A stretch of DNA of 64,000 bases from Macrostomum lignano (lineage: Eukaryota), in the NCBI GenBank assembly GCA_002269645.1, contig NIVC01000440.1:124001-188000 (forward strand), read 5' to 3'. Below, piece after piece: positions 535-17,116 of the stretch. The notes below the pieces were generated by a model. It worked only from the letters and a program-made list of their open reading frames with translations. It was not told the origin of the DNA and searched no databases. A program made the translations under genes and the position numbers. Within the stretch, counting starts at the first letter, position 1. Each line of letters starts with the position of its first letter.

Positions 535-2890
535 TCAGGTGCAGAACGCCTTGGACACGGTGCAGGCGTCGCAGACAACTCGAAACGGTTGCCGCAGCAG
601 CCGGCAAGTCTTCCTCTTGCACTCCGGATGCGTGCCCGGGTAAGTGACCGAGCGAACGCTGTACGGCCTGCCGCAGCACATCACGCTGCAGAGCACCTCC
701 CTGCGGTACTGGCTGCTGTCTTCACTTGGCAGGCCCTTGAGCAGGCTCTGACCGACAGGCGTGTTATCTGGGAGGCACTCCCTGTGACGGGTTAGGCAGT
801 GTGACAATGTTAGATTGTTGAGCAAGTTCAACTCAGCCTCGTACTAAACAAATGCATTGCATATGAGCCGTATGTATCAAGGACTACTCAAGTAGAAAGT
901 TTTCAAGCCTGGCGCACCTTCCATGCGTGACGGAGCAGTAATCCAGCGAGTGCTCATGAAATAGTAGAAGCGTCTTCTTTGGCAGCCCTTTGACAATCCG
1001 GTGACCAATGCATCGGGGACCAAGCGACAGCGGGTTCGTTGGCTGATGGTTACCGGAAGCGGCGCCCGGACAGAGCTCCTCGTATCCTGCGTAGCCTGAG
1101 CGATCGAATATGGCCCTGCGCATCTGGTGCTAGAAGTGAGGGACGGATTTTCGGAGGTGATCATAGCTGCGATTTCTAATGCAGAGTGACAAGAGCTGGA
1201 TCTCTGCATACAAATCAGTACAGATGCAGAGTGACAAGATCATAGAGCCCCGGATCTCTGCATGCGGATCAGTACAGATGCAGAGTGACAAGATCACAGA
1301 GCCCCGGATCTCTGCATGCCGATCAGTACAGATGCAGAGTGACAAGATCATAGAGCCGCGGATCTCTGCATGCGGATCAGTACAGATGCAGAGTGACAAG
1401 ATCACAGAGCCCCGGATCTCTGCATGCGGATCAGTACAGATGCAGAGTGACAAGATCACAGAGACCCGGATCTCTGCATGCGGATCAGTACAGATGCAGA
1501 GTGACAAGATCACAGAGCCCCGGATCTCTGCATGCGGATCAGTACAGATGCAGAGTGACAAGATCACAGAGCCCCGGATCTCTGCATGCGGATCAGTACA
1601 GATGCAGAGTGACAAGATCATAGAGCCGGATCTCTGCATACGGGTCAAGTCACAACTCCAAAACCGAAAAAAAACTATCACTATCACTCACCGTGTCATA
1701 AATTCGCATCAAAACGTCCAAAGGATTTTTTCCAGTCCTATGAAACAGACTGCCAGCCAGGAGCAGCGGCTTCTCCTGCTGCTGATTCTCCAGCTGCTGC
1801 CACCAGGAGCCTCCGACAGCTCCGTAGTGCAGCACTCGATGGCAGGTGCGCACAGAACAGGCTGCACTAGTGCCGTGGCATTTGCACCTCACTGCCTCGG
1901 CGTGTCGAGTCGCCCTTATCCCAACCTGATAGTTGTGACCGTTCACCAGTTCAGTGAACTGTTCGAAGGCTTCCTCTACTGGCACGTCTGTCGATGTTGA
2001 CGACCAAGAAGTCGTCTTCAAGCTTCGTCGAAGTCGGCCAATCGACAGGAATTTCCTGGCCAGACGGGTTCCAGCTCGAAGGCTCCTGTCGCAACCGTTG
2101 GACTTGAAACTGTCAAGCCGGAAGCCGGCGGGAAGTTTGGCAGCAAGCCAGCCAGGCGGCGCAACTGCAGCGGCCGCTGAACTCTGCTGACGGCCCTGGC
2201 ATGAGCACCGGCGGATGCGTCCTTTGGCGCACTCCCCCGCCATGGTGAGGGTCAGGACGAAGCCGGACAGAGCTCGGACCATGGCGTGCTCCGCTGTCAC
2301 TGGAATTGCATGAGGCTACATTTGCATACAACTGTGCTTTTGACTCAGCAGCTCAGCGGTAAACTAATCTGGCTCTCTCGGGCTGCGACCCCTGGTTCGA
2401 TTCAAGACGAAAATTGACCGATATAGGTTGTCGTTAGATTCACAACCCATGAGAGCCGACCACCAGGACACAGAGAGTGTATTTGCCTGACGATTAGCAA
2501 GTCAGGGCCGCTGTACGCCCTGTGTGAGCGAGTACATGAGTGCGTGCCTGCGTACGGTATTGACGAGTGTGTTGCTCGGGAATCATCGGAATGGGACGAT
2601 GTCGCCGAATACATGAAAATTTCAGCAGAACTTACGCGCTTGCAGCTCCGGCGACAGTCGCGGCAGCTGGTGCAACGAGCTGCAGTTCCAGCGGCAGTGC
2701 CGAAACTGCAGGCCGCACAGAGACACGGCGGCTTTGGCAGCTTCGGTCAGCGCTGTTAGTGCGGCCGGGCTCTGAGCCGATCGCTGGCAGAACCGCGCCT
2801 GAGCCCAGTTGAAGATCCGGTGCCGCCGCATAGCCGAGCAGGTCGGGGCGCTGCTGCTTGATGGCGGCCTGTCCAGCTTGTGCAGGGCTC
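535..2890 (-). CDS. wnt: Divergent Wnt-family ligand; exons ~2890-2636, 2299-1692, 1129-918, 781-535; 5' signal-peptide exon not located
   Basis: Spliced translation gives Wnt hallmarks: TC..Q..FC, CGLQFRHCRWNCS, CAKG..CSC, GC, HN..G, RCKCHGTSAACSVRTC, HSLDYC, THGREC, CSVMCCGRPY. All three introns (2300-2635, 1130-1691, 782-917) are GT-AG and phase-compatible. Confidence 0.9.
1179..1640. repeat. 54-bp tandem repeat (~8.5 copies) inside a Wnt intron
   Basis: Unit ATGCAGAGTGACAAGATCACAGAGCCCCGGATCTCTGCATGCGGATCAGTACAG; period 54; lies within intron 1130-1691. Confidence 0.95.
2342..2610 (+). mobile_element. tRNA-derived SINE, family A, copy 1 (in Wnt intron)
   Basis: A-box-like AGCTCAGCGG, B-box GGTTCGATTC; body (AAGTCAGGGCCGCTGTAC..TGTGTGAGC..TGCGTGCCTGCGT..GACGATGTCGCCGA) shared with 35228-35556 and 40528-40795. 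Confidence 0.75.
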
Positions 2891-3063
2891 TGAGCGCGCG
2901 ATGATGGGTCGAAAAGTTGAAAAATTAACATAAAAAAATTAATTTTACTGGGCTTCAGACAGATAATGATCAATTTATTTGTATCTGGGGGCAGGGGTGT
3001 CAAGGGAATTTCCGCATGCGGTGAGAGTGCTTCCAGGCGTAACCAAGATGTTTAATTGGAGGT

Positions 3064-3477
3064 GGTGCTGGCGCCCCTTGGTGCTAAAGCCCCTTGGTGC
3101 TAAAGCCCCTTGGTGCTAAAGCCCCCTTGGTGCTAAAGCCCCTTGGTGCTTAAGCCCCTTGGTGCTAAAGCCCCTTGGTGCTAAAGCCCCTTGGTGCTAA
3201 AGCCCCTTGGTGCTAAAGCCCCTTGGTGCTAAAGCCCCTTGGTGCTAAAGCCCCTTGGTGCTAAAGCCCCTTGGTGCTAAAGCCCCTTGGTGCTAAAGCC
3301 CCTTGGTGCTAAAGCCCCTTGGTGCTAAAGCCCCTTGGTGCTAAAGCCCCTTGCTGCTAAAGCCCCTTGGTGCTAAAGCCCCTGGTGCTAAAGCCCCTGG
3401 TGCTAAAGCCCCTTGGTGCTAAAGCCCCTTGGTGCTAAAGCCCCTTGGTGCTAAAGCCCCTTGGTGCTAAAGCCCCC
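3064..3477. repeat. 16-bp tandem array (GCCCCTTGGTGCTAAA)n, ~26 copies
   Basis: Direct inspection. Confidence 0.95.
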
Positions 3478-3949
3478 AATCAGAAAATTCTTGCCTCAAG
3501 CTATGAAGTCCCAAAGTAAAAATCCGAAACTTGTAAGTGAATTTTTTTCAATTTTTTGAGCGGAAAAATGCTTGAATAATCAAGCATATACAGTTATACT
3601 TACAGCCATTCGATTCCAAGGCAGTAATGTAGCTGAATTCCAATAGTTAAAAATATTATCAATAATTTTTGAGCAACAGTCATGTTGTTAGGCTTTGTTA
3701 TCTGTGTTATTTCGCAAGAAACACAAAGTTTTTTAAATCTGATTCACTCTCAGTTGCTTTGCGCTGTCTACGCAATGGTCAGCTTGCGAGGTATATATAT
3801 TCTTGGAAAATTATACGACCAATGGTGTCGGCGGCACTGCCTTTTGATCTCGCCGACTTGCTAGAATAGCACCTGAACAGTACGCCAAACTGTATAATTG
3901 CGCCCCCTCTCTTCTTCTTTGTGACGCTGCTTCTAAAAGAAGAAAACCT

Positions 3950-4396: not shown

Positions 4397-4858
4397 GGTG
4401 CTGGCGCTGGCGCTCGGTGCTGGCGCCCCTTGGTGCTGGCGCCCCTTGGTGCTGGCGCCCCTTGGTGCTGGCGCCCCTTGGTGCTGGCGCCCCTTGGTGC
4501 TGGCGCCCCTTGGTGCTGGCGCCCCTTGGTGCTGGCGCCCCTTGGTGCTGGCGCCCCTTGGTGCTGGCGCCCCTTGGTGCTGGCGCCCCTTGGTGCTGGC
4601 GCCCCTTGGTGCTGGCGCCCCTTGGTGCTGGCGCCCCTTGGTGCTGGCGCCCCTTGGTGCTGGCGCCCCTTGGTGCTGGCGCCCCTTGGTGCTGGCGCCC
4701 CTTGGTGCTGGCGCCCCTTGGTGCTGGCGCCCCTTGGTGCTGGCGCCCCTTGGTGCTGGCGCCCCTTGGTGCTGGCGCCCCTTGGTGCTGGCGCCCCTTG
4801 GTGCTGGCGCCCCTTGGTGCTGGCGCCCCTTGCTGCTGGCGCCCCTTGGTGCTGGCGC
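4397..4858. repeat. 16-bp tandem array (GCCCCTTGGTGCTGGC)n, ~28 copies
   Basis: Direct inspection; shares 13-bp core with the 3064-3477 array. Confidence 0.95.
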
Positions 4859-6017
4859 TGGACCGCCCGCTGGTATACATGTATTTACATTTACATCAAA
4901 TATGGCACCACTGCAATCACGCATCACTTCATTACCCCAATATCGGGGATATTGGGGACATGTACTGCCCCAATATCGACTAAAATAAATACATGTACCG
5001 TATACATTCATTGAGCAAAATCCACATGCACCTTTTTCGATATAGACTTCACTTCAGCCAGGCCCTCCCATGCAGATCCCTTCTCTCTCCACTCATGCTT
5101 CAGCTCATCAATTTGATCCCCGCGCTGGTCACGACTCTGTCACCACCCCATACAGCAATCCGATGTTGGGGTTCGACGTACGTCAGCAACATGCGTGTAA
5201 ACATCCGCGTCGACGTTTAATTTCGACGTCTACACATGTACATGTAAAAGTAACATCTATTGACGCGGCTGGCAAATGGGTACTTTTGATCATGCAGTTC
5301 AGCGCTGCAGTTTCAGAAGTTTAATTTGTTTAACCATGCAGTCTCAATTACTGCCAAACTATAACCATGCATGTAAACTAACATAAAGTTAAAATTCGTA
5401 CAGTTTTAATTACATTTACACAAAACTATAGTGCTGATCATGGGTGGGAGTTTGCTTATACAATGAAAAACGTACGCTACGTACATGTACATGCATGTAC
5501 GTATGCAGTGTTAATTTCATCATTCACTAAACTGCTTTTGGCCTGATGAGAAAGTCAATTTTGAAAAAAACGAGTATATTTATGCCAGGTGTTGGGTCTA
5601 ACTACATGTTCGACTTACTCGTATCTTAATTACACTTTATATATGTACTCGACAATTGCATGTACATGCAGTGTACATGTACATTGCAATCTGCAGTTGC
5701 ATGAAAGAAAAACACAATCTCAACTTGCAAATTTTACAATTGACAATCTACAGCATCGTCTGTACTATTTCACATGCACATATATTTTAATTGAAAATTT
5801 TTGGGGTTTTTGCTGAACAGTGGCAGAATACTACTATAGTACCAATTGCAATTAGTCCGGGACTTTTGCAGGTTTTAGAAAAGTAACTGTAACGTACATC
5901 TAGAAGGAGCAGAATAGGACCAGAATGATTTGATCAAAACGCAGAGAAAACCGTCTTTATTAAAACAGCTCTTCTGCCGGCTCAGATCCTTTTACGAACT
6001 TCTAGTTTTCTTACTCC

Positions 6018-6881
6018 TGATGTGTTCCTTATTACCCGACTTTCGATAATCAAGGAACAATCAGTTCTAGCTCAACAGCTAGGCAACCCAGTTAGTCAAA
6101 CGAAGGTATTCAATTACCTTTAATCCGGATTTGAATTTCTTGAGTAGTTCTCGCTAGGAACTCGTCAGTAGATCTCGTAGATCAGGCGCCTTGATTCTTC
6201 AGTTGCTCTGGTCCTGGTTCCTCTTGTACTTCCGATAAATTCCTCCGGCCGGTATCTTCCGTCAGGACCAATCAGAGGCCTCGTATCAACAATGGGTACC
6301 CTGCGCCGAACAGCGGTTTGAATTAAGCCTCCTTCTTCTAGTAGTGCCTTTATGCACTCTAGGTATGGCTCCGGAAACCACTGATAGTCCTCTAAGATCT
6401 ATCAGGGGCAGTCCTTCTGGAGACTGCAACCAATGGAGTCTAAACAGACTCAAGAGTCTCAACAGACTCAAATAGACTCAAGTCTCAATAGACTTGAGCG
6501 AGACGTCTCTAACACAACGGGCGCAAATAAGGAAGGCTTACCGCAACAACTCGACCGAGTCTCGATTGACTTGGTAGATCAGGAAGTCCTCCTAAGGCTT
6601 CCTCTTCGGAGCGCTCCTCTTCCGTGGGGAGAATGACTCCGGTACCGCTTCAGATCGCTTGTATTTATAGGCAACTTTTTGCTCCAAAATAGCATCATTA
6701 CAATTCACGTGTTGCGCTAAAAGGGGAAAATGGCTCATGGCGTATTATTCTGGTAACATCTTTTCCTGGTAGCGTGATTCATTCAAAGCTTAGGCGCACA
6801 TGCGTGTACTTACTTACTTATAGTAGTATTATACGATTATCTTCTTTTTTTCTGTTTTTGCGGGAGGCAGAACACTCTACA
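6018..6881 (-). repeat. 3' LTR (864 bp)
   Basis: Matches 15743-16605 at offset 9725; differences seen are one G/C substitution (6064) and a 1-nt poly-T indel. Confidence 0.97.
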
Positions 6882-6884
6882 AAA

Positions 6885-6896
6885 TCTCCCTTTTTT
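6885..6896 (-). other. Polypurine tract AAAAAAGGGAGA
   Basis: Purine run 3 nt upstream of the TG start of the 3' LTR on the element's sense strand. Confidence 0.85.
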
Positions 6897-7009
6897 ACGA
6901 AAAAACTCGTCCCGAGTTTTAACAATAAAATAATAAAATTCTGTGGTGATCAGTTAATATAGGAAATAAACAATTGATTTTTTGCGCGTCTAGAGAAGCG
7001 AGGGTTTGG

Positions 7010-7444
7010 TCAAAACTCTAAAAACTTTTCAGTACATATTGCGGTCAAAACTCGAATATCGAGTAGACATCGAGTGGCATCAGGTTTGATACGACACCAC
7101 TTTCGAAACGTGCAGTCTCGCGGCATACTATTACATAAGGGGCATCCTATAATGCCCCTATTAGCGGTTTGCTTCAAACAGTGCATGCAAATAAAATGTT
7201 GGTGGTTACAATATTGAAACGTGCGCCAAGAATAACAATAGGCGCATTGTCGCAAACTATCTCTACAGAGGGGACAATTCTGCCATGGCTGAATATAGTG
7301 TGAATCACTTAAACATTGTCCGCAAACTTTATGTCCATTGATGCAAATAGTCGGTGGTTTGACAGCCAAGTCATCAGCTAAACATATCGGGCAGTCATAT
7401 AGCTGCTGAGGCTGGGGCGCCTGTTTCGACAGTGCGTTGCCCAT
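7010..7444 (-). CDS. Accessory ORF: 144-aa tandem double RING-finger protein with N-terminal myristoylation motif (MGNALSK)
   Basis: ATG at 7444; RING1 CPIC...CINGHKVCGQC...CPLC; RING2 CAYC...CNHQHFICMHC...CPLC; between pol stop and PPT, same strand as pol. Confidence 0.85.
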   Translation of the reverse strand: MGNALSKQAPQPQQLYDCPICLADDLAVKPPTICINGHKVCGQCLSDSHYIQPWQNCPLCRDSLRQCAYCYSWRTFQYCNHQHFICMHCLKQTANRGIIGCPLCNSMPRDCTFRKWCRIKPDATRCLLDIRVLTAICTEKFLEF

Positions 7445-7564
7445 AATTGTCGTCAATTTGTTGCTGTCTTTGTGTCGCTCGGATTAGTCGCCTTTTACGA
7501 CAAGCTTGCGAAGCTGTAGTGCTATTCTTTATCCCGGTCACTACACGGGGTTGTTCTCGAAACT

Positions 7565-10114
7565 TTAGCGTGGTCGTAGGTTGTAGCCATGTGGCTGGCT
7601 CACATCTGTCGTTTGAGTCTCCTCGTGCTTCGTCGCGATGTGGCGGTTCGTTGAACGCGTGCGATCGGCGTTGTCTAATGTCGGTAGAAACGTCGCCGTG
7701 TCAGTGTTGATCTTCTTCAGTCGATGAATGTGTACGTAGAACTGGTGCTGATGAGGATCTTGCACATTGGCCAGGCGCGCTGTTGTCGGTGACGTTAGTT
7801 GGACCACTCGATAGGGTCCTTTGTACTTCTGTGCATGTTTATGCGTCTGCTGTGGCGGGTAGTGCAGGTAGACGACGTCGCCGGCCGTCAGGGTTGTCGA
7901 TCTCGTGTCGTTGCCAGTGGTCAGAGCCACCTGGTTGTCAATATTGTGCTTGGCGATCTTCCATGCCAGGTGTAGTTGCGTGACGAATTTTTGAATGGAA
8001 GTCGGTACTTCCACGTACTGCGATGGTAGTAATTGCTGTGCGAGCAGATTTGGCGGCTGAAAGTCTCGTCCAAACATCAGGAAGAATGGCGTGTTGTCCG
8101 TTGATCGATGAATAGCACTGTTGTAGGCCATTGTTACAGATTGCAGGTAGATGATCCAGTCTTCCGGCTGTTGGTGCGCGAAATGTGTAATCATCTCGTG
8201 CAGGTTGCGGTGAAACCTTTCAACCATGTTCGCCTTCGGATTGTAGGTTGATGTGTAGATTTGCGTGATGTTGAGAATCTTTACTACTTGCTGAAACAGT
8301 TGCGATGTAAACTGCGATCCGTTGTCCGATGTGAGGTTCTTCGGCGTGCCGTACTTGCAAATGATTTCGTTGAAGAAACCCATTGCAACTGTCTGAGCTG
8401 TGATGTCCGGTATCGGTATGGCGATAGCAAACTTCGAGAAGATATCCAAGGCGGTTAAAATGTAGGTGTAGGCGATGCCCTGGAGGCAGCTCGGTGGCAG
8501 TGGTCCGGTGATGTCGATGCTTAGACAGTCCATTGTAGTGGACTTCGGAATGGACTGTAGCTGCGGTTTCTGTCGTCGTCCTGTCTTTGATGCAGCACAT
8601 GAATGGCAGTTGTTGCAATACTGCTTGATGTCGCCGTACATAGTTGGCCAAAAGTAGTATTGTTCCACTCTTGCAATGGTTTTGGCTGCCGACAGGTGTC
8701 CAGCGAGTGGGTTGTCGTGTAGCTCGTTGAGAATTGCTTGCCGAAACGAATATGGTATGTAGATCTTGGGTTTATTGTCGCTCATCCAGTAGAGCCGTGA
8801 CTTATTGATTGTTAGGTGTTGTCGTTGCTTGCGCAGGAATTTTCGTTCCATGGGACTGAGTTTGATGTTCTTGTCATCGTCTTTAACCGCTAGGTAGAAG
8901 TTGTCGCGCTCGGTTTCATCCACCAACTCTTTGATGTTAGGGATTGGGTGAATGGAGTTGACTTCATAGGCTCTTGACAGGGCGTCCGCGGCTTTGTTGG
9001 TAACTCCTGGTTTGTAGACGAGCTTGTAGTTGTAGTCCTGGATCTTGAGTGTCATCCTGATGAGTCGGTTGTTGGTCTGTCCTTTTGTAGTTACGACGTA
9101 GGTCAATGGTGCATGATCCGTGCGTACTATTGTCTGTATTGGAGAACCATAGATGTAGTAATGGAACTGTCGCAGAGCGAACAAGACTCCTAGTAGCTCT
9201 CGTTCCGTAGCTGACCACTTTGTCTCATTTGGTTTGAGTGCTCGACTGACATACGCAATAGGTCGTTCCTTCTTGTCCTCGGTTTCCTGTAGTAGGACTG
9301 CTCCGAGTCCCGTTCCTGAGGCGTCTGTCTCGATGATAAAGGGCTTGTCGAAGTCCGGATGCTGTAGCAGTGCGTCTGATGTCAGCTGTCGTTTGATTTC
9401 GTCGAAACTTTCTTGTTGTCTCTGTGTCCAGTTGTCTTGCTTCCATTTGTCGAACTTGAGCAGGTCGTACAGTGGCTTTGCTGTCTTTGCGAAGTTAGGT
9501 AAGAACTTCCTGAAGTATTGCGCAAGTCCAAGGAATGATTGGACCTTCGTTATACTGGTTGGCGTAGGAAACTTTTTCACCTTCTCTACGTTGTCTGGGT
9601 CCGGTGAAATTCCTTTGGCTGTCACTTGGTGTCCTAGGCAACGCACGTTGTCTCGGAAGAATTTGCACTTTGTCGGTTGCAGCTTTAGACCTTGGCGTTG
9701 AATGAGCGCTAGGGCCTTCTCCGTAGCTTCGTAGAGTCGCTCGAAATCCTCTCCGTAGGCTAAAATGTCGTCGACATAGTGCAGCAGGTTCGTGCATCCT
9801 GCTAGCATGTATGCTGTTAGTCGACTCATCGTTGCTGGGCTGTTGCTAAGTCCCATCGGCGATCGGTTGTACTCATAGACTTGTCCATTGTAGGTCTTGA
9901 AAGCCGTGTACTGTCGTGATTCTTTCTCGATTTCGATTTGCCAAAATCCATGACGTAGGTCGAACACTGTGAACAATTTTGCCGTGTTGAGCTTTGCTAG
10001 TAGTTCGGAGATCTTCGGTAGGCTTTGCTGATCCGTCGGTATGTACTTGTTCAACAGTCTGAAGTCGCATACGAGTCGTCTTTCGTTAGTCTCCTTCTTT
10101 GTACCAAGAGACAT
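7565..10114 (-). CDS. pol: Pol: RT, RNase H, integrase (joined to the upstream frame across a 1-nt frameshift at ~10098-10100)
   Basis: RRLVCDFRLLN, DLRHGFWQI, YVDD (9767-9778), TDASGTGLGAVL, ERELL, HHCC (H..GH...CHSC), SDNGSQF, ERFHR, KYKGPY. Confidence 0.95.
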   Translation of the reverse strand: MSLGTKKETNERRLVCDFRLLNKYIPTDQQSLPKISELLAKLNTAKLFTVFDLRHGFWQIEIEKESRQYTAFKTYNGQVYEYNRSPMGLSNSPATMSRLTAYMLAGCTNLLHYVDDILAYGEDFERLYEATEKALALIQRQGLKLQPTKCKFFRDNVRCLGHQVTAKGISPDPDNVEKVKKFPTPTSITKVQSFLGLAQYFRKFLPNFAKTAKPLYDLLKFDKWKQDNWTQRQQESFDEIKRQLTSDALLQHPDFDKPFIIETDASGTGLGAVLLQETEDKKERPIAYVSRALKPNETKWSATERELLGVLFALRQFHYYIYGSPIQTIVRTDHAPLTYVVTTKGQTNNRLIRMTLKIQDYNYKLVYKPGVTNKAADALSRAYEVNSIHPIPNIKELVDETERDNFYLAVKDDDKNIKLSPMERKFLRKQRQHLTINKSRLYWMSDNKPKIYIPYSFRQAILNELHDNPLAGHLSAAKTIARVEQYYFWPTMYGDIKQYCNNCHSCAASKTGRRQKPQLQSIPKSTTMDCLSIDITGPLPPSCLQGIAYTYILTALDIFSKFAIAIPIPDITAQTVAMGFFNEIICKYGTPKNLTSDNGSQFTSQLFQQVVKILNITQIYTSTYNPKANMVERFHRNLHEMITHFAHQQPEDWIIYLQSVTMAYNSAIHRSTDNTPFFLMFGRDFQPPNLLAQQLLPSQYVEVPTSIQKFVTQLHLAWKIAKHNIDNQVALTTGNDTRSTTLTAGDVVYLHYPPQQTHKHAQKYKGPYRVVQLTSPTTARLANVQDPHQHQFYVHIHRLKKINTDTATFLPTLDNADRTRSTNRHIATKHEETQTTDVSQPHGYNLRPR

Positions 10115-12399
10115 GGTGATGAGTATGCTGATATGGCTTTGCTAATGATGCCGTGTTTCAGCATTTTGTCGATAATCTCATCGAAGTGCTGTTGCAGATG
10201 CTTGGCGATCGGGTACGGCTTGCACTGAATTGGTTCCGTGTGCGGCAGAAGTTTGATTTCCTGTTTGATGTCCTTGGCTCGTCCGATGTCGTAGTCATGG
10301 TGGCAGAAAGCGTCGTTGTACTTCCACAACAGCTGTCGAACTTTCCTCTTTTGCTGTTCCGTAATCGGGCTGTCATCCAAATTGATCTTCTTTTGAAATT
10401 CTTCCTCTGTTAGTCGTGGAGTCGCTTGTTCAATCAGCATAACCGATGCCTGAGTGTTGAGATGACCGATGCACATTCCTTGCCGTAGATGAACCACTTC
10501 TGCGTTCGGGTTGAAGATTTGCACTGGCAGTTGCTTATCTTTTGCAACCAGCACTAGTGCCGTAGGCATCATGATTTGATGTTTTGCCGTAATTCTCCTG
10601 TGCGGATCAAATATCATTGCTTCATCTGCTGCGCTGGTCGCTTTCGCTCTGACCCAGCATGCGCTTTCAGGCTGGATGATGACATCTTGCTGCAGAGTTA
10701 CTTTCGGTAGTACTCGAATCTGGTTGATCAGTGGTTGCTCCACCGTGTCGATCCTAAATGTTTGCTTGTTGAAGTCGAAGGTCAATGGTAGTCGAAGCTG
10801 TTTGAACGTGTCTATTCCAACGATGACGTCTTGGTTTGGTAGTCTGTCGATGATGTACGTCGGGACCGTCAGCTGTTTATTAGCAATTTTCAAGTCAATA
10901 TCTGCTTTTCCTAGAATGTTGAGCGAATGTCCTCCTGCTCCTGCAACTGCGATTGCTGCTGGTCGTACCGCGAGTCGTAGCTTGTTGCATAATTGTTGCG
11001 AGATGACTGTGATCGAGCTGCCTGAATCCAGTAGTGCTCGACATGGCAAGTTGTTGACAATGACCTGAGCCATTGCTTTGCCAATCTCGGCGTGTAGCGT
11101 GCAGACGTAGTTTTCCGGCCATTTTGGCTCGTGTTGTTCAGGCTGATAAGTAGGTGGCTGCATTCTCGGTGCTGTTGGTGTTGTCGGAATCGATGGGTAC
11201 ATTCGCGTTGATGGTGTCGGCTGTCCTTGAGTTTCTTGTCGTGCATCCTCTGTCAATTCCAAGTTGTTGTCTTCTTCTCTTGGTGTCTTCTGCATGATGG
11301 CGTTCACTGTTCGTTTCGCTGTGGGACAAGTGTTGCTGAAGCATCGTACTATCGACGAGATGATAAAGATCGCCGTGACTATCCAAACAACGCAGGCGCT
11401 GTAGAAGATGAAGCCTTGATATAGGCTGCCTCTTCCGTTAAGCAGCTCCAAGAAGCTGTTTGTCCAAAACGATTGGATGGCGTTGTCCATCGACACAAGG
11501 ACCGGGAAATTGCGTGTTCCCGTTCCTTTATTCTTTCGTGTGAAGAGTTGACGAATCATCTTTCGTTGAGTGATGAACGCTTGCAAGAAGTCGTTGATGG
11601 TCCATCCTGGTGTTATTTCATCGAGTTGGATATCGGCGAATGGTGTGTACTTCGTTCTGTTGAACCGTATCTTCAGATCGTCCATGTCGTACGTTTCGTC
11701 GACTATCACTTCTGGTTCTGTGATGTTTGCTGTCGTTCCTGTTGTTTTAATGACATGTAGTGCATCGTCCAGTTGATAGTAGTTTGCTGCAGTGGTGCAA
11801 GGTCTTGGTATTGCGGTTCCAACGATGATGTTGTGTACCGTGTCCAAGAATCCTTGTATTCTTTTGCCTTCGTAGAATGCTTCAATTCTCGGCTTGTCGT
11901 AGCAAGTTGTTGAAGTGTTCGACGGTAAGATGTTGAAGTGCTGTATCGGCGTGCACTTGTATATCAGGAGATGTCCATATATCGGAATTGCCAGAACCTC
12001 TCTCATTCCAGTGATCTTGCGAAATGTCATCGTAGGGTTGACATAGTAGTTCTGTCTTGCGTAGTTCAAGTTGATTGCGTGCATTTTGCAAGTTAGCTGA
12101 ACCAGTGACCGATATAAGTGGTTTAGCTGGTTATGCAGGTTGTGATCCAGCGCCGTGATCTTTGCTGACAGTAGTAGGTTTGATACCAATCGTGGACGTT
12201 TTATGTCGCGTCGTTGCCTTTCTTGTTGTTGATACGTTCCGTTTATGATCGCCAGGAAGGTTCGTTTATCGTCATCCTTTACATAGACTGGTATTTCTTG
12301 CTCCGAGATGAATAGCGTCTTGTCCGTATTCTTGCATTTGAGTTCCTGTTCAACCGGCTTCTTTTGAAACGTCAAGGCCAAGTCTCCTGCTTTTGCCAA
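10051..12399 (-). CDS. Envelope C-terminal half + TM + cytoplasmic tail + aspartic protease + start of RT (same frame as gag)
   Basis: gB-like motifs, TM 11347-11412, protease ALLDSGS (DSG 11020-11028), RT N-terminus ending SAYSSPCLLV. Confidence 0.9.
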   Translation of the reverse strand: MAKAGDLALTFQKKPVEQELKCKNTDKTLFISEQEIPVYVKDDDKRTFLAIINGTYQQQERQRRDIKRPRLVSNLLLSAKITALDHNLHNQLNHLYRSLVQLTCKMHAINLNYARQNYYVNPTMTFRKITGMREVLAIPIYGHLLIYKCTPIQHFNILPSNTSTTCYDKPRIEAFYEGKRIQGFLDTVHNIIVGTAIPRPCTTAANYYQLDDALHVIKTTGTTANITEPEVIVDETYDMDDLKIRFNRTKYTPFADIQLDEITPGWTINDFLQAFITQRKMIRQLFTRKNKGTGTRNFPVLVSMDNAIQSFWTNSFLELLNGRGSLYQGFIFYSACVVWIVTAIFIISSIVRCFSNTCPTAKRTVNAIMQKTPREEDNNLELTEDARQETQGQPTPSTRMYPSIPTTPTAPRMQPPTYQPEQHEPKWPENYVCTLHAEIGKAMAQVIVNNLPCRALLDSGSSITVISQQLCNKLRLAVRPAAIAVAGAGGHSLNILGKADIDLKIANKQLTVPTYIIDRLPNQDVIVGIDTFKQLRLPLTFDFNKQTFRIDTVEQPLINQIRVLPKVTLQQDVIIQPESACWVRAKATSAADEAMIFDPHRRITAKHQIMMPTALVLVAKDKQLPVQIFNPNAEVVHLRQGMCIGHLNTQASVMLIEQATPRLTEEEFQKKINLDDSPITEQQKRKVRQLLWKYNDAFCHHDYDIGRAKDIKQEIKLLPHTEPIQCKPYPIAKHLQQHFDEIIDKMLKHGIISKAISAYSSPCLLVQRRRLTKDDSYATSDC

Positions 12400-13197
12400 A
12401 AACGTATTCGACAGTAGTCCTCCTTCAACTGTGTGATACTTTTGAAGCTTGCAGTCAATTTCCGGCTCTACTTCCCATGCGAAGAAATATTGTCATGACT
12501 TGTACGGTTCCTCATAGTGTGATTGTGCTCTGTGCTCAATCTGCCATCGATAGTCTTGATGATATGTTGGACTCAGTGGTAGACTGTGTAGTTCTTCCTT
12601 CCGTAGAATTGGTGTTGGACACCATCCTTCACTGTATCGACATTCGCTTAGTTGCAGCTGTAACGATTCCATTTTCTCGTACGGATTGTAGTAGAATGGA
12701 ATATTTCTGATCAAGTAGCTGTTGCGTGCCATATATTCTTTCCATTTTCCGAAGAAGTGAATGTATCGACCGTTGGCTGAATTCTTTGTTCTGAACAGCT
12801 GTGCGTTGCCGACCTTCTCATCTGGTTCCAGTTCACCATCCCTTTAAAATAGTGTTTGATTCCATTGTAGGCATTCCGCGTGCGACACATGTAGCTCATG
12901 TTGTTTGAATCGGATCCGGTTCCATTGTCCGCGCCAAACTTTTTCCACCAGGTGCTTGTCTCTGAAGCATACTATTCCGTGTTGTCGATGCTTCTTGATG
13001 TTAGCCTTGTAGAGATCGAGTGTAATCTTCTTTGGTTTCGTCTGGTTTGTCTTGAAGTAGCTGCATTTGATGTCGGTTGGTATCTTGTAGATCATCGGTT
13101 GGATATGCGCATCCGTTGGACAAATCATTGGTTTTTCCGTTGCCGTTGCTTTGGCGACTACTGCTATCAGTAGTATCACGATGATCCAGTATAGCCA
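11347..13197 (-). pseudogene. env: Envelope glycoprotein (class III fusion protein, herpes gB / chuvirus G-like), two in-frame stops in this copy
   Basis: Signal-like WLYWIIVILLIAVVAKA (13147-13197), cysteine-rich ectodomain, six N-x-S/T sequons, RQRR site (12208-12219), C-terminal TM; stops at 12844-12846 (TAA) and 12493-12495 (TGA) with the frame unchanged. Confidence 0.8.
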
Positions 13198-15030
13198 GTT
13201 TTTCCACTTCTTGGACCTTGCCGTTGTCTTTGCTGGCATTGGCCGCGATCGCCATTCGTTATCTTCCATGTCCGCATCATATCCTTCCGGTTGTTCCATT
13301 GGCTGTTTCAGGCGGAAGACTTCTGATTCGCTTTGCCTTTTGGTTATTTCATTATCTTCGTCTGCGGCTTCTTCCGATGTTTCCGTTGTTTCACTCCATT
13401 GCGTTTGGTATCTTTTCTCTGTCTTGTAGTCGACCGTTTGAATATAGGCTTCACCATTTCGTTTGTATCGGATCTCGTAGCATTCGTCGCTGTCGGAACT
13501 CGGCTTTTCTTTCATCTGTTCTTTTTCCATTTTTTCATCTTTCCATTGTATTTCGTAGCCTTGATCGCTGTCGGAACTTAGATTTTCCGCTCTCAGTTCT
13601 TCCTGCATTCCTCTTTCGGCTCGGTATCCGTTCGTGTCATCACGCACCTCGCAGTCGTGATCGTTGCCGTAACTCCTACATTCTTCTTCTTCTTTCATTT
13701 CCTTGTCTTTCATGCTCGTTTTGTCGTCATCCACTGTTGTCGATTCATAGTTGTTTTCTCTGCCGGTCTCCATCTTTTCTTCGTTACCGATGTCGCTCTC
13801 CGCCTCCTCCCTTTTCTTGTGATTTACTTTCTTCCTGTTTTCTCTGCTGTCTCCGGTGGTCTCTTTTAATTTGATCATTTCGGTTTCATTCGCCTCTTCC
13901 GTGTTGTCAGTGTTGTCCTCGTGCGTCGTCTTCTTTTCGATCAAGCTGATGTCAAGTTCCGGGACTGTGAAGTCCATTTCCAAGTCGTCAATTGTGAACA
14001 CTTGCTGTTCTTGCTGTTCATTTTCCGGTGTGTACGTGATGGCATTCGCGTATCGTGGCATTGCTTGCGTCGGCTGTCTTTGTGTGTATCTGGCGTTGCG
14101 TGGCCTGTAGCCATCATTTCTGAAGCGACCGTCATTTCCGTAGCGGCCATCATTTCCGAAGCGGCCATCCTTTCCGAAGCGTCTCATGTCTTGTTGGCGA
14201 TTTTGATATTGCTGCCATGGTTTCTGCGGCTTTTGATTGTTGAATGTCTGTCGTGGCTTGTCGTATCTTGTCGACCAATGGGGACAATTAATCTGATAAT
14301 GTCCTTCTCGTCCGCAGTAGTAACATCTGGCTGAGGCTCGTTCATTTCGTCTTTTTTGTTCGGCGATAGCAGCTGTCTGGTGCTGCATTAATTTGTTTAA
14401 TTGCTGCGTCAGTTTCTGCACTTCATTGTTGCCTGTCGTCATTAATGGGGCACTGGCTTCCCATTGCATTCCGCAACGCAAAAGGTCTTCTTCGGTTTCG
14501 ATATTTTCACGCAAAAGTCTATCCCGAAGTGACGGCTGTGCGTTGTTTATTACGTGCAGGATTAGGTTTTGTTCGCGATCCATCAATCGCTGTCTTTCTC
14601 TGGCGGCCAATTCTGCTGCTCCCAGTGGCGGTTGGTCCGCAGCTTGCAACGGTGGCTGATGCAGTGCCTTAATTATCTGGCGGATATCGTCCACAAAGGC
14701 GAGGAAGGATTCTGTTGCTTGCATCCTTCTGTTATGTAACTTGTGCAGCAGCACTGATCTGTTTGTGCCGCAACGGTTGAAATGCGCGCGCAGTTGAATG
14801 ATTAGTGCTGGATAATTTTGCTGTGTTGCCGCATCCAGCTTGCCGTAAATTTCTCGCGCAGTACCTTGGAGAAGAGGTGGCAGCAGCTGTGCCTTCTCTG
14901 GATTTTCTAGGTTGTATTCCCTACATACCAGGTCAAAATGGTCGACAAATGTGTTAAAATCTTTCTCCATCGAGAAGGTACCGACCGTTTCTTTGATGTC
15001 TCTGTGTACCGTTGGATTGCGCCGCGCCAT
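12844..15030 (-). CDS. gag: Gag (capsid + CCHC zinc knuckle) fused in frame to an acidic spacer and the envelope N-terminus
   Basis: Ty3-type capsid segment (F..F...C...LL..LL.G.A..Y..L...Y..L...L..HF), CYYCGREGHYQINC at 14284-14325. Confidence 0.92.
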   Translation of the reverse strand: MARRNPTVHRDIKETVGTFSMEKDFNTFVDHFDLVCREYNLENPEKAQLLPPLLQGTAREIYGKLDAATQQNYPALIIQLRAHFNRCGTNRSVLLHKLHNRRMQATESFLAFVDDIRQIIKALHQPPLQAADQPPLGAAELAARERQRLMDREQNLILHVINNAQPSLRDRLLRENIETEEDLLRCGMQWEASAPLMTTGNNEVQKLTQQLNKLMQHQTAAIAEQKRRNERASARCYYCGREGHYQINCPHWSTRYDKPRQTFNNQKPQKPWQQYQNRQQDMRRFGKDGRFGNDGRYGNDGRFRNDGYRPRNARYTQRQPTQAMPRYANAITYTPENEQQEQQVFTIDDLEMDFTVPELDISLIEKKTTHEDNTDNTEEANETEMIKLKETTGDSRENRKKVNHKKREEAESDIGNEEKMETGRENNYESTTVDDDKTSMKDKEMKEEEECRSYGNDHDCEVRDDTNGYRAERGMQEELRAENLSSDSDQGYEIQWKDEKMEKEQMKEKPSSDSDECYEIRYKRNGEAYIQTVDYKTEKRYQTQWSETTETSEEAADEDNEITKRQSESEVFRLKQPMEQPEGYDADMEDNEWRSRPMPAKTTARSKKWKNWLYWIIVILLIAVVAKATATEKPMICPTDAHIQPMIYKIPTDIKCSYFKTNQTKPKKITLDLYKANIKKHRQHGIVCFRDKHLVEKVWRGQWNRIRFKQHELHVSHAECLQWNQTLF

Positions 15031-15729
15031 GTTGTTGATAGGATAGAACGGTAGTTCAAGATCTGGATCGATTTGTAACGGATCGTCCAGTGTGGTGCTT
15101 GCCTCGGAATAAACCTCGACTGTAACGAATTGCCTTGCGGTGTCGATCTGTTATTCGCTGGCCTCGAAGTTGCGGCTTGCTGCCACTGGTTGTCCTCAAA
15201 TGAACTTGTTCTGTTCGCTTGCTGATTTCGCACTTATGCGGCGTCCCGCAAAGTGTATCTTCAAGTTGAAGTGGGCTTTGTCTTCTTGCTTTGCAAAGTC
15301 TTTTTTCTCTTCTTTGACTTTCTCTCTTTGTCAATTAACTCCGCTCTTCACGAAGTTTCAATTAATTTCGGTTTTGTTTTAGTTTTTGTGCCGGCAAAAT
15401 GTTTCAGTTATTTTTTTGTTTGTTTTGCGTCGATGATTCTTTTGTTTTCGGTTTGTTTTCAGTGTACCGACGAAGTTAATTTCGGTTTTGTTTTAAACTC
15501 ACACTTGCTCGAGCTCGTCAAAACAAAATTTTTACACGCGTGCTCAACTGTACTCAAATTTGACAGGTGCTCAAACCTGTACACCAAAATTTACTCGAGT
15601 TTCAAAACGTAACGGACTTAAAAAGTGTTAACTCTAACATGTGCGCGCAAAATTAATGAAGTCGCTCTGTCGTCACTTTACAATAGCTTGGCCAGGCTAT
15701 TGCTCAAATTTTGAGTAGTGCCGAGAGGG

Positions 15730-15740
15730 CGAGATCACCA
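15730..15740 (-). other. Primer-binding site TGGTGATCTCG
   Basis: TGG-initiated, 2 nt downstream of the 5' LTR end; pairs with a tRNA-Trp-type 3' end if two G-U wobbles are allowed. Confidence 0.7.
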
Positions 15741-15742
15741 AT

Positions 15743-16605
15743 TGATGTGTTCCTTATTACCCGACTTTCGATAATCAAGGAACAATCACTTCTAGCTCAA
15801 CAGCTAGGCAACCCAGTTAGTCAAACGAAGGTATTCAATTACCTTTAATCCGGATTTGAATTTCTTGAGTAGTTCTCGCTAGGAACTCGTCAGTAGATCT
15901 CGTAGATCAGGCGCCTTGATTCTTCAGTTGCTCTGGTCCTGGTTCCTCTTGTACTTCCGATAAATTCCTCCGGCCGGTATCTTCCGTCAGGACCAATCAG
16001 AGGCCTCGTATCAACAATGGGTACCCTGCGCCGAACAGCGGTTTGAATTAAGCCTCCTTCTTCTAGTAGTGCCTTTATGCACTCTAGGTATGGCTCCGGA
16101 AACCACTGATAGTCCTCTAAGATCTATCAGGGGCAGTCCTTCTGGAGACTGCAACCAATGGAGTCTAAACAGACTCAAGAGTCTCAACAGACTCAAATAG
16201 ACTCAAGTCTCAATAGACTTGAGCGAGACGTCTCTAACACAACGGGCGCAAATAAGGAAGGCTTACCGCAACAACTCGACCGAGTCTCGATTGACTTGGT
16301 AGATCAGGAAGTCCTCCTAAGGCTTCCTCTTCGGAGCGCTCCTCTTCCGTGGGGAGAATGACTCCGGTACCGCTTCAGATCGCTTGTATTTATAGGCAAC
16401 TTTTTGCTCCAAAATAGCATCATTACAATTCACGTGTTGCGCTAAAAGGGGAAAATGGCTCATGGCGTATTATTCTGGTAACATCTTTTCCTGGTAGCGT
16501 GATTCATTCAAAGCTTAGGCGCACATGCGTGTACTTACTTACTTATAGTAGTATTATACGATTATCTTCTTTTTTCTGTTTTTGCGGGAGGCAGAACACT
16601 CTACA
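15743..16605 (-). repeat. 5' LTR (863 bp)
   Basis: Near-identical to 6018-6881; followed on the sense strand by the PBS. Confidence 0.97.
16387..16394 (-). promoter_or_regulatory. LTR TATA box TATAAATA (copy at 6662-6669)
   Basis: Consensus TATA on the element's sense strand ~210 nt into U3. Confidence 0.65.
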
Positions 16606-17116
16606 CTCCCACATTAATTAACTCTATTTAATTTAGCGTTACTTTAAAATGTAACTGGCCTAAATGAAACAAAAGAATGCCTAAATAAATCCATTTGAAA
16701 CAATTTCATGTTAAAAACTACAAGGGTTTTAAATTTTTTGACATTCATAAAGCGAATTTGTTTAAACCTTTCAACTGCTCGCTCGCAAAGCGGGACGACA
16801 GATTCAATTTCTCATTTTTTGATTAATTATTGGACCCGCATGCACGCACGCACGCACAAACGCACGTTAAGTAATCTTGTTGACCTTAGCCCTCGGTCCC
16901 CGGTAACCAGTCACGACCTCGACAAATCCCAGATCTCTCCGTCCTCGTCTTGGCTTCAGATTACTTCTAACCAGCCCTCCAGAATTAGCATTGAGATAGA
17001 CCTTGACTTGAGGTTTAAACTTGCGTTACTTGCCTTAAGGTTAAGCAGCATAGATTGCCATAGAAATTTTTTATTAATATAGGATCGGATTTTAGGTATT
17101 CTGAGAAAGTCAGAAA

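Follow-up and report, generated by a model that had tools for sequence, protein, structure and literature searches.

A tandem RING-finger gene cassette at the 3' end of a gB-type GAG-ENV-POL errantivirus family of Macrostomum lignano

The open reading frame (ORF) at positions 7010..7444 of the minus strand, in the 64,000-nucleotide stretch of Macrostomum lignano DNA analyzed here (hereafter the window), is the truncated first member, named RING-A, of a tandem cassette of two to three paralogues carried by an LTR retrotransposon. The cassette is under purifying selection and is inherited with the element. We think it probable, with considerable reserve, that it is an accessory, E3-ligase-like cassette of a clade of GAG-ENV-POL errantiviruses with a gB-like env, and that it is aimed at host factors. 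Ty3/gypsy elements are usually depicted as gag-pol(-env), and to our knowledge few accessory proteins are known for them.

Results

The element belongs to a catalogued errantivirus family

The LTR element spans positions 6018-16605 of the minus strand. Its 5' LTR (15743..16605, with TG...CA ends) and 3' LTR (6018..6881) measure 863 and 864 nt, with 2 differences over 864 places. The element is flanked by a 4-bp target duplication, GGAG, at 16606-16609 and 6014-6017, and the insertion is therefore young. The signs of a Ty3/gypsy element are present on the same strand, namely the LTRs, a primer-binding site (PBS, 15729..15740), a polypurine tract (PPT, 6885..6896) and the order protease, reverse transcriptase (RT), RNase H (RH), integrase (IN). 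The RT-RH-IN region covers 7565..10114, with the pol stop at 7565, and a TATA-like box lies in the LTR at 16387..16394. No tRNA gene was found in the 64-kb window.

Errantiviruses with a GAG-ENV-POL order and a gB-type env were reported from flatworms by Chary and Hayashi (PMC13524379), and the accessible part of their catalogue includes Platyhelminthes_Rhabditophora_Mlig_errantivirus_2, from the identical host species and with an 863-nt LTR. The window element shares with it the host, the gene order, the gB-type env, the 863-nt LTR, a short form of ~10.6 kb and the sequence of the PBS. The two are one element family, already catalogued. The accessible text of that study and its seven supplementary files contain no match for RING, and late domain, PTAP and matrix do not occur in the text; as far as accessible, the description covers neither the cassette nor the long form nor the Env-tail motifs, all of which are seen here.

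Around the element, the window holds many tandem repeats, with minisatellite arrays at 1180-1640, 3060-3480 and 4400-4860 and many more beyond 23000 (units of 16, 21, 29, 34, 39 and 54 nt), as well as a Gln/His-rich coding-like stretch at ~53400-55400. A frame with CRLQFRHCRWNCS-like text at ~2620-2830 (minus strand) may resemble a Wnt exon, and the element may sit in or near a Wnt-like gene. Dense one-orientation nests of many subfamilies, in which fragments of the 3' cassette and of LTRs abound, were seen outside the window, in G000 at C2121:1-70000, C1130:1-50000, C87, C272, C4009 and C1405; these nests look like piRNA-cluster-type traps.

The env gene lies inside the polyprotein

The ORF had been described, in a reading made from the sequence only, as occupying the canonical env slot. 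The real env of the element is a gB-like glycoprotein within the polyprotein, between gag and protease, and since the element has its own env elsewhere, the ORF at 7010-7444 is an extra gene and not a substitute for env. The frame encoding gag, an acidic spacer, env and protease covers 10054..15030 (minus strand) and, with stops read as X, contains in order a capsid, a CCHC knuckle, the acidic spacer, a hydrophobic signal, a Cys-rich ectodomain, a transmembrane helix, a tail and the protease. Gag begins MARRN with the capsid at its start, as that reading had it. The hydrophobic signal or anchor at the gag-env border is internal (13138..13194, minus strand, residues 613-631). It is followed by the gB/chuvirus-like ectodomain (11416..13137), which carries six sequons and a furin-like RQRR motif and matches PF24664 with an E-value of 3.8e-5 and 22.3 bits, below the cut-off of 27 bits. 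The transmembrane helix (11359..11415, residues 1206-1224) and the aspartic protease (10810..11067) lie on the same strand. The accessible supplement of PMC13524379 types the env of the family as ENV_HSV. The acidic spacer, which separates the zinc knuckle of Gag from the signal of Env, is long in the window (~13200-14000, minus strand) and shorter in sister families.

In the window copy, the frame is broken by in-frame stops near 12845 and 12494 and by a frameshift near 10100, after which RT-RH-IN follow. Among 20 short-type sister copies that were fetched, the polyprotein frame is unbroken in two and broken in 18.

Ahead of the protease, the Env tail carries the late-domain-like motifs YPSI, PTAP and PPTY (11146..11199, minus strand). 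In all seven families examined, the variable cytoplasmic tail of Env contains P[TS]AP and/or YPxI (P[TS]AP in five, YPxI in six; loci were the window, L051, L057, L061, L122, L123, L126 and L131). Env is only ~25% identical in distant families, yet the tail motifs are kept. P[TS]AP and YPxI are known as ESCRT-recruiting late-domain motifs, and their presence suggests that the Env tail may recruit ESCRT, hinting at a budding route for GAG-ENV-POL elements without a matrix domain.

The ORF encodes two zinc fingers that differ in their conserved residues

The ORF begins 120 nt beyond the pol stop and lies ahead of the PPT. It encodes 144 aa on the minus strand, and its first ATG gives MGNALSK followed by two C3HC4-like fingers ending in CPLC, all as the sequence-only reading had stated. 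Finger 1 (7262..7393) has C3HC4, Sina-like spacing and ends in CPLCR, with an invariant Pro and Arg; finger 2 (7133..7246) has a RING-like fold and no conserved Arg after its last Cys. Both follow the pattern C-x2-C...C-x3-H-x2-C-x2-C...CPLC. None of the 16 zinc ligands varies among the 18 aligned sequences, which are 21-93% identical to the first row, so the ORF is not a chance one. The likeness of the two fingers holds for the C3HC4 spacing and fails for the conserved Pro and Arg: CPxCR is found in finger 1 of 18/18 rows, and in finger 2 an Arg at that place occurs in 0/18, with the Pro often absent.

A profile search, as had been advised, gave RING matches for the window protein, all with sub-threshold scores (Sina_RING, E 1.7e-4). 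The Pfam RING matches of a long RING-A copy are also all sub-threshold. PF21362 matches finger 1, which is Sina-like, in 16 of the 18 family members.

The window copy has lost part of a tandem cassette

The ORF had also been called intact. In long-type copies, 96% identical upstream, RING-A runs on in frame to 222 aa and is followed by a second paralogue, RING-B (~210 aa), and then by the PPT. A full-copy paralogue consists of finger 1, finger 2 and a helical domain of ~100 aa. The window lineage has ~143 nt of diverged RING-A-like sequence where the long copies have ~1.19 kb, a net shortening of ~1.05 kb, and is without the helical domain and RING-B. The diverged tail and deletion junction (6937..7079, minus strand) is 72-76% like the RING-A of other subfamilies and then jumps to the 3' untranslated region. 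A join compatible with the deletion was found in three of four public runs, which makes an assembly error unlikely. The 144-aa product is probably a remnant that has lost substrate recognition. The sequence-only reading had overlooked that env lies within the polyprotein, that the ORF is truncated and that it has paralogues.

A genome search in which 150 of 217 candidates were scored gave at least 150 matches. Of 40 scored rows, 26 contain the complete short junction, and RING-B is found at 97% or more in 8 of 151 rows; with 26 rows of short copies against 8 of long ones, no copy-number gain from the cassette is obvious. In 23 short copies, the first stop falls at codon 145 in 6, 125 in 15, 114 in one and 82 in one, the 16 ligands are all intact in 19 and Arg61 is present in every copy. 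A third dispersed lineage (at least 20 rows; L070, L081, L135, L136, L088) has a RING-A that ends at codon 70. The last ligand of finger 1 is gone in four of five copies of this lineage, and the fifth is frameshifted early. Lineages that lost the cassette have nonetheless spread, and we propose that it is dispensable for copying.

Families with an integrase 72-77% identical share the layout, with two to three tandem paralogues and more in nested regions. Families with an integrase 40-45% identical have no RING gene, and other ORFs fill the slot. These distant-family 3' ORFs are intact, with lengths of 253-260, ~105-113 and 318 aa (L127:421-1203, L124:368-1129, L134:2187-2504, L132:421-1377). 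Pfam assigned them to no family except for one weak match, and the 260-aa ORF was rejected as a RING relative (hhalign probability 0.1%).

The cassette is under purifying selection and has homologs outside the assembly

The dN/dS of RING-A, calculated by the Nei-Gojobori method, is 0.08-0.31 in the 19 of 45 pairs with unsaturated dS, the remaining 26 being saturated, and pS exceeds pN in 45/45 pairs. Values of 0.18-0.30 were obtained for RING-B (6/6 pairs) and of 0.10-0.23 for residues 109 to the end among long copies; the pairs are not independent. The comparison across copies that had been called for therefore gave, with invariant ligands and low dN/dS, purifying selection at the family level in place of the neutral decay in sister copies that had been considered. 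In a midpoint-rooted FastTree tree of 23 sequences, the first-position genes cluster in a clade of their own (support 0.89), as do the downstream genes (0.97), and the duplication of the paralogues is therefore older than the family split.

A HMMER search of 1.84 billion proteins gave 130 matches, six of them at 1e-10 or better, including one Sina-like repeat. The outside homologs P0003-P0006 and P0016 come from short Logan contigs, and P0003-P0005 align over the full length, helical domain included, showing that the RING family exists outside this assembly. A UniRef record from M. lignano is nearly identical to the second paralogue. Word-index protein searches returned 0 matches for the window ORF (4 candidates), 0 for alignment A1 (1710 candidates) and only its own first row for alignment A2 (2412 candidates). 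None of 10 cassette proteins was retrieved by exact look-up, and the viral contigs searched with P0003 contained no relative. The loci examined, which are part of the at least 150 genome matches, did not include a host donor gene.

Structural models place finger 1 among E3-type RINGs

The AlphaFold model of full-length RING-A is confident and compact (pLDDT 87, pTM 0.77). Residues 63-222 modeled alone gave a pLDDT of 92 and a pTM of 0.84, and both models show a C-terminal part made of helices only. Foldseek aligned finger 1 with E3 RINGs at a probability of up to 1.0 and an rmsd of ~2-2.6 A over ~50 residues, with E-values above 0.001, and finger 2 with a viral RING at a probability of 1.0 and an rmsd of 2.2 A over 59 columns (E 0.014). 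The top PDB sequence matches were SIAH1, TRIM5, TRIM21 and RING2. The TRAF-like substrate-binding domain of Sina/SIAH proteins is absent, the sole Sina match being the RING model. For the helical domain there was no Atlas match and the best Z was 4.9, for a common helical arrangement; in these models the domain is without a clear fold match, which does not imply a new fold. A likeness to ATP-synthase delta was rejected as non-specific. The first Atlas match of the whole protein was to giant-virus RINGs (0.91, 155/256 features) and serves as a lead only.

The linchpin Arg of a RING stands directly after the last Cys. According to the accessible part of PMC12326332, this residue is key for stabilizing E2~ubiquitin. 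It is present in finger 1 in 18/18 sequences and absent from finger 2 (0/18). Some RINGs with good motifs are inactive on their own. From its fold and residues, finger 1 may act as an E3 ligase; the suggestion that the ORF encodes such a ligase gains support from the E3-like fold, CPxCR and purifying selection. Several intron-less E2 genes of the host (L111-L120) are UBE2A- and UBE2D-like.

A myristoylation motif is confined to one subclade

RING-A begins with MGNALSK or MGNAQSR in four subfamilies that have diverged to near saturation at the synonymous sites of this gene. G2, N3, A4 and S6 are kept, position 7 is basic, and the Ser6 codons are TCA, TCG, TCC and TCT. The G2/S6 pair fits the N-myristoyltransferase (NMT) consensus, and this N-terminus would fit selection for that consensus in the four subfamilies. 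For codons 1-16, dN/dS is 0.09 (p 0.007) in one comparison, other pairs being uninformative. Ser2 replaces Gly2 in two of 23 short copies. Orthologues in other families of shared layout start with MANTFE, MAKKFE and MDCP, and neither the orthologues of two other family groups nor any of the five aligned outside homologs have Gly2. Because other families start otherwise, the motif is not required and represents either a gain in the subclade or a loss elsewhere. Targeting of RING-A to membranes is thus plausible for the window subclade only: the proposed membrane-targeted protein finds support in Gly2 and Ser6, kept across four diverged subfamilies, and loses it in the orthologues with other starts.

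Conserved, predicted splice signals precede the cassette genes

The LTR carries TATAAATA and, ~120 nt further on, GCG/GTAAGC (16261..16269, minus strand), a predicted major splice donor ~120 nt past the TATA box. The subfamilies share this donor with one another and with two distant LTRs (C583/C301); a search of the C391 LTR gave no GGTAAG donor motif. A conserved non-coding block (7483..7530, minus strand) contains a predicted splice acceptor, a CAG ending at 7514, 69 nt before the ATG. The conserved CAG block lies 61-98 nt before the RING-A ATG and precedes all eight first genes compared, and neither leader segment of the window (donor side or acceptor side) contains an ATG. Among 10 downstream genes, which are kin and hence not independent counts, eight have a YAG whose last base is 0-2 nt ahead of the ATG, compared with 52 of 594 background positions (9%), and two have no adjacent YAG. 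We infer from these signals that there would be spliced accessory mRNAs in which the LTR donor is joined to an acceptor ahead of each gene.

In one run, X4, whose RNA status is presumed, a contig joins exactly at the predicted donor, with a depth of 7.4, to an AG inside the LTR; a contig of this run is without the GT..AG stretch L032:2652-2937 within the LTR, which starts exactly at the predicted donor. A UniRef gene model, perhaps only a prediction, links the LTR donor straight to a RING-B start. No LTR-to-RING splice join occurs among the contig joins listed, and contig depths are unfit for ranking gene expression. Spliced-leader trans-splicing is estimated for 30% of M. lignano genes in the accessible part of PMC8629364, and it could use the cassette acceptors.

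Discussion

As an accessory cassette aimed at host factors, the RING genes would be expressed from subgenomic RNAs spliced from the LTR donor to the acceptor before each gene, as the conserved signals suggest. Finger 1 would bind ubiquitin-charged E2 and act as an E3 ligase, in keeping with its fold and residues, and finger 2 and the helical domain would choose the substrate. The RING-A of the window subclade may have gained a myristoylation signal directing it to membranes, the paralogues being soluble. Host restriction or silencing proteins are the proposed targets, and the cassette would aid the element in conflict with its host and be unneeded for copying. Purifying selection is seen, and not the rapid change that a simple arms-race model predicts, which counts against a role in host conflict.

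Steady purifying selection would suit a fixed partner. The cassette could accordingly be a self-directed regulator, ubiquitinating the Env tail or Gag for ESCRT budding, or controlling the splicing or export of genomic RNA as CERV does, an explanation that we consider unlikely and yet worth weighing. P[TS]AP and/or YPxI recur in the Env tail of 7/7 families, and a myristoylated RING-A would meet that membrane; a strong 5' donor demands export of unspliced RNA, and Cer1, in the accessible account, uses a spliced accessory protein (PMC10309623). However, lineages without RING-B, one of them also without finger 1, are found at 20 or more places, some with an unbroken polyprotein, help in trans being possible. 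Sister GAG-ENV-POL families share the tail motifs and have no RING gene, and Pfam and fold searches returned nothing CERV-like.

We regard as improbable that the proteins are zinc-binding scaffolds or E2 decoys devoid of ligase activity, sequestering E2 or dimerizing with host RINGs, with the short form perhaps selected as a dominant-negative. The fingers of the short copies survive where the tail decays, most often from a stop at codon 125, but such copies, being young and 93-97% alike, would show little decay anyway. The invariant linchpin Arg favors catalysis, and the third lineage lost finger 1 altogether.

The sequence-only reading had suggested that the ORF supplies a matrix function in trans. 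A myristoylated RING, like arenavirus Z, would then link the capsid to the membrane and drive budding of a Gag without a matrix domain. The opening of Gag with the capsid and the G2/S6/K-or-R7 residues kept in four subfamilies, with the low dN/dS of codons 1-16, would fit, and arenavirus Z gives a faint match to finger 2 (E 0.047), at row 59 of 60 among the matches listed, under dozens of cellular RINGs. Nevertheless, orthologues in other family groups and the outside homologs are without Gly2, and none of the RING proteins of alignments A1 and A2 contains P[TS]AP or PPxY. Gag is co-linear with the hydrophobic anchor that follows it and with Env, and this arrangement can supply membrane targeting and budding in cis. 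Full RING-A, with 222 aa, two fingers and a helical domain, is unlike Z. Because the motif is confined to one subclade, the budding motifs lie in the Env tail, cassette-less lineages spread (as do those with a broken finger 1) and distant families use unrelated genes, we consider a matrix role highly unlikely.

A recently transduced host gene fragment, functionless for the element, is largely refuted and barely credible: finger 1 is Sina-like and the loci C356 and C1391 have no nearby pol, one of them also no recognizable LTR, but the C356 copy is just a broken fragment, the Sina substrate-binding domain is absent, dS is saturated with low dN, the paralogue split is ancient, close outside relatives are scarce and no recent donor was found among the loci examined.

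The accessory cassette aimed at host factors thus stays our preferred reading. Extending it, we tentatively raise the possibility, itself rather doubtful, that a flatworm errantivirus clade independently evolved a complex-retrovirus organization. An LTR donor would feed a compartment-sorted battery of RING E3 ligases (one myristoylated, the rest soluble) that destroys anti-transposon or antiviral factors, the 3' region would be a swappable counter-defense island, and a matrix-less Gag-Env-Pol would bud through the late domains of the Env tail. If true, a self-encoded E3-like set would be a counter-defense route that lentiviruses reach only via host ligases, and flatworm restriction or silencing factors would be revealed by its substrates. 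One genome holds long, short and finger-less natural lineages, a ready comparison set. The host is described as open to transgenesis (PMC8629364, accessible part), and the cassette would allow accessory genes to be tested in a tractable animal, the flagged copy itself being a remnant.

Comparison with known systems

The element was already known; the RING cassette is new as far as the literature searched, in which no description of such a cassette in an LTR element was found (Sacco et al. 2022 and an earlier M. lignano LTR survey lie outside that search). The accessible text of PMC12801592 has no match for RING, and its expression table has 150. Burro/GYPSM1 elements are giant gypsy-like planarian elements whose env lies between gag and pol and is in frame with them (PMC6431247, accessible part). 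Burro resembles the window element as a flatworm LTR element, in the placement of env and in carrying ubiquitination- or apoptosis-related cargo (AIR1, MATH, BIR, BCL2, SUMO-like). In Burro, as far as the accessible account goes, the cargo lies within a polyprotein of ~5,000 aa or in an upstream ORF, whereas here it consists of separate 3' paralogues with one novel architecture. Bdelloid LTR elements carry ORF3 cargo (PMC5408684), an extra 3' ORF like the cassette; the accessible part of that paper has no match for RING or ubiquitin. Like the cassette, the CERV of Cer1 in C. elegans (PMC10309623) is an accessory protein of an LTR retrotransposon made from spliced RNA, predicted here from the splice signals. 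In contrast, CERV has 517 aa, shares exons with gag, has H, M and G domains and exports RNA, and the accessible part of its description mentions no RING finger.

Finger 1 shares the C3HC4 fold and the E2-facing residues with SIAH1, TRIM proteins and RNF4 and with ICP0, PE38 and giant-virus RINGs. The cassette proteins differ from all of these by a tandem second finger and the helical domain, and no whole-protein homolog was found among them. Arenavirus Z is small and essential, with a Gly2 motif, one RING and C-terminal late domains, whereas the RING family described here has two fingers, lacks a late domain, carries Gly2 in one subclade only and has been lost repeatedly. The accessory genes of complex retroviruses, such as Vif, Vpx and Vpu, are likewise additional ORFs at the 3' end; their mRNAs are spliced from a 5' donor, and they are dispensable in some settings. 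Lentiviral accessory proteins are adaptors that borrow host ligases; in contrast, the cassette carries its own RING.
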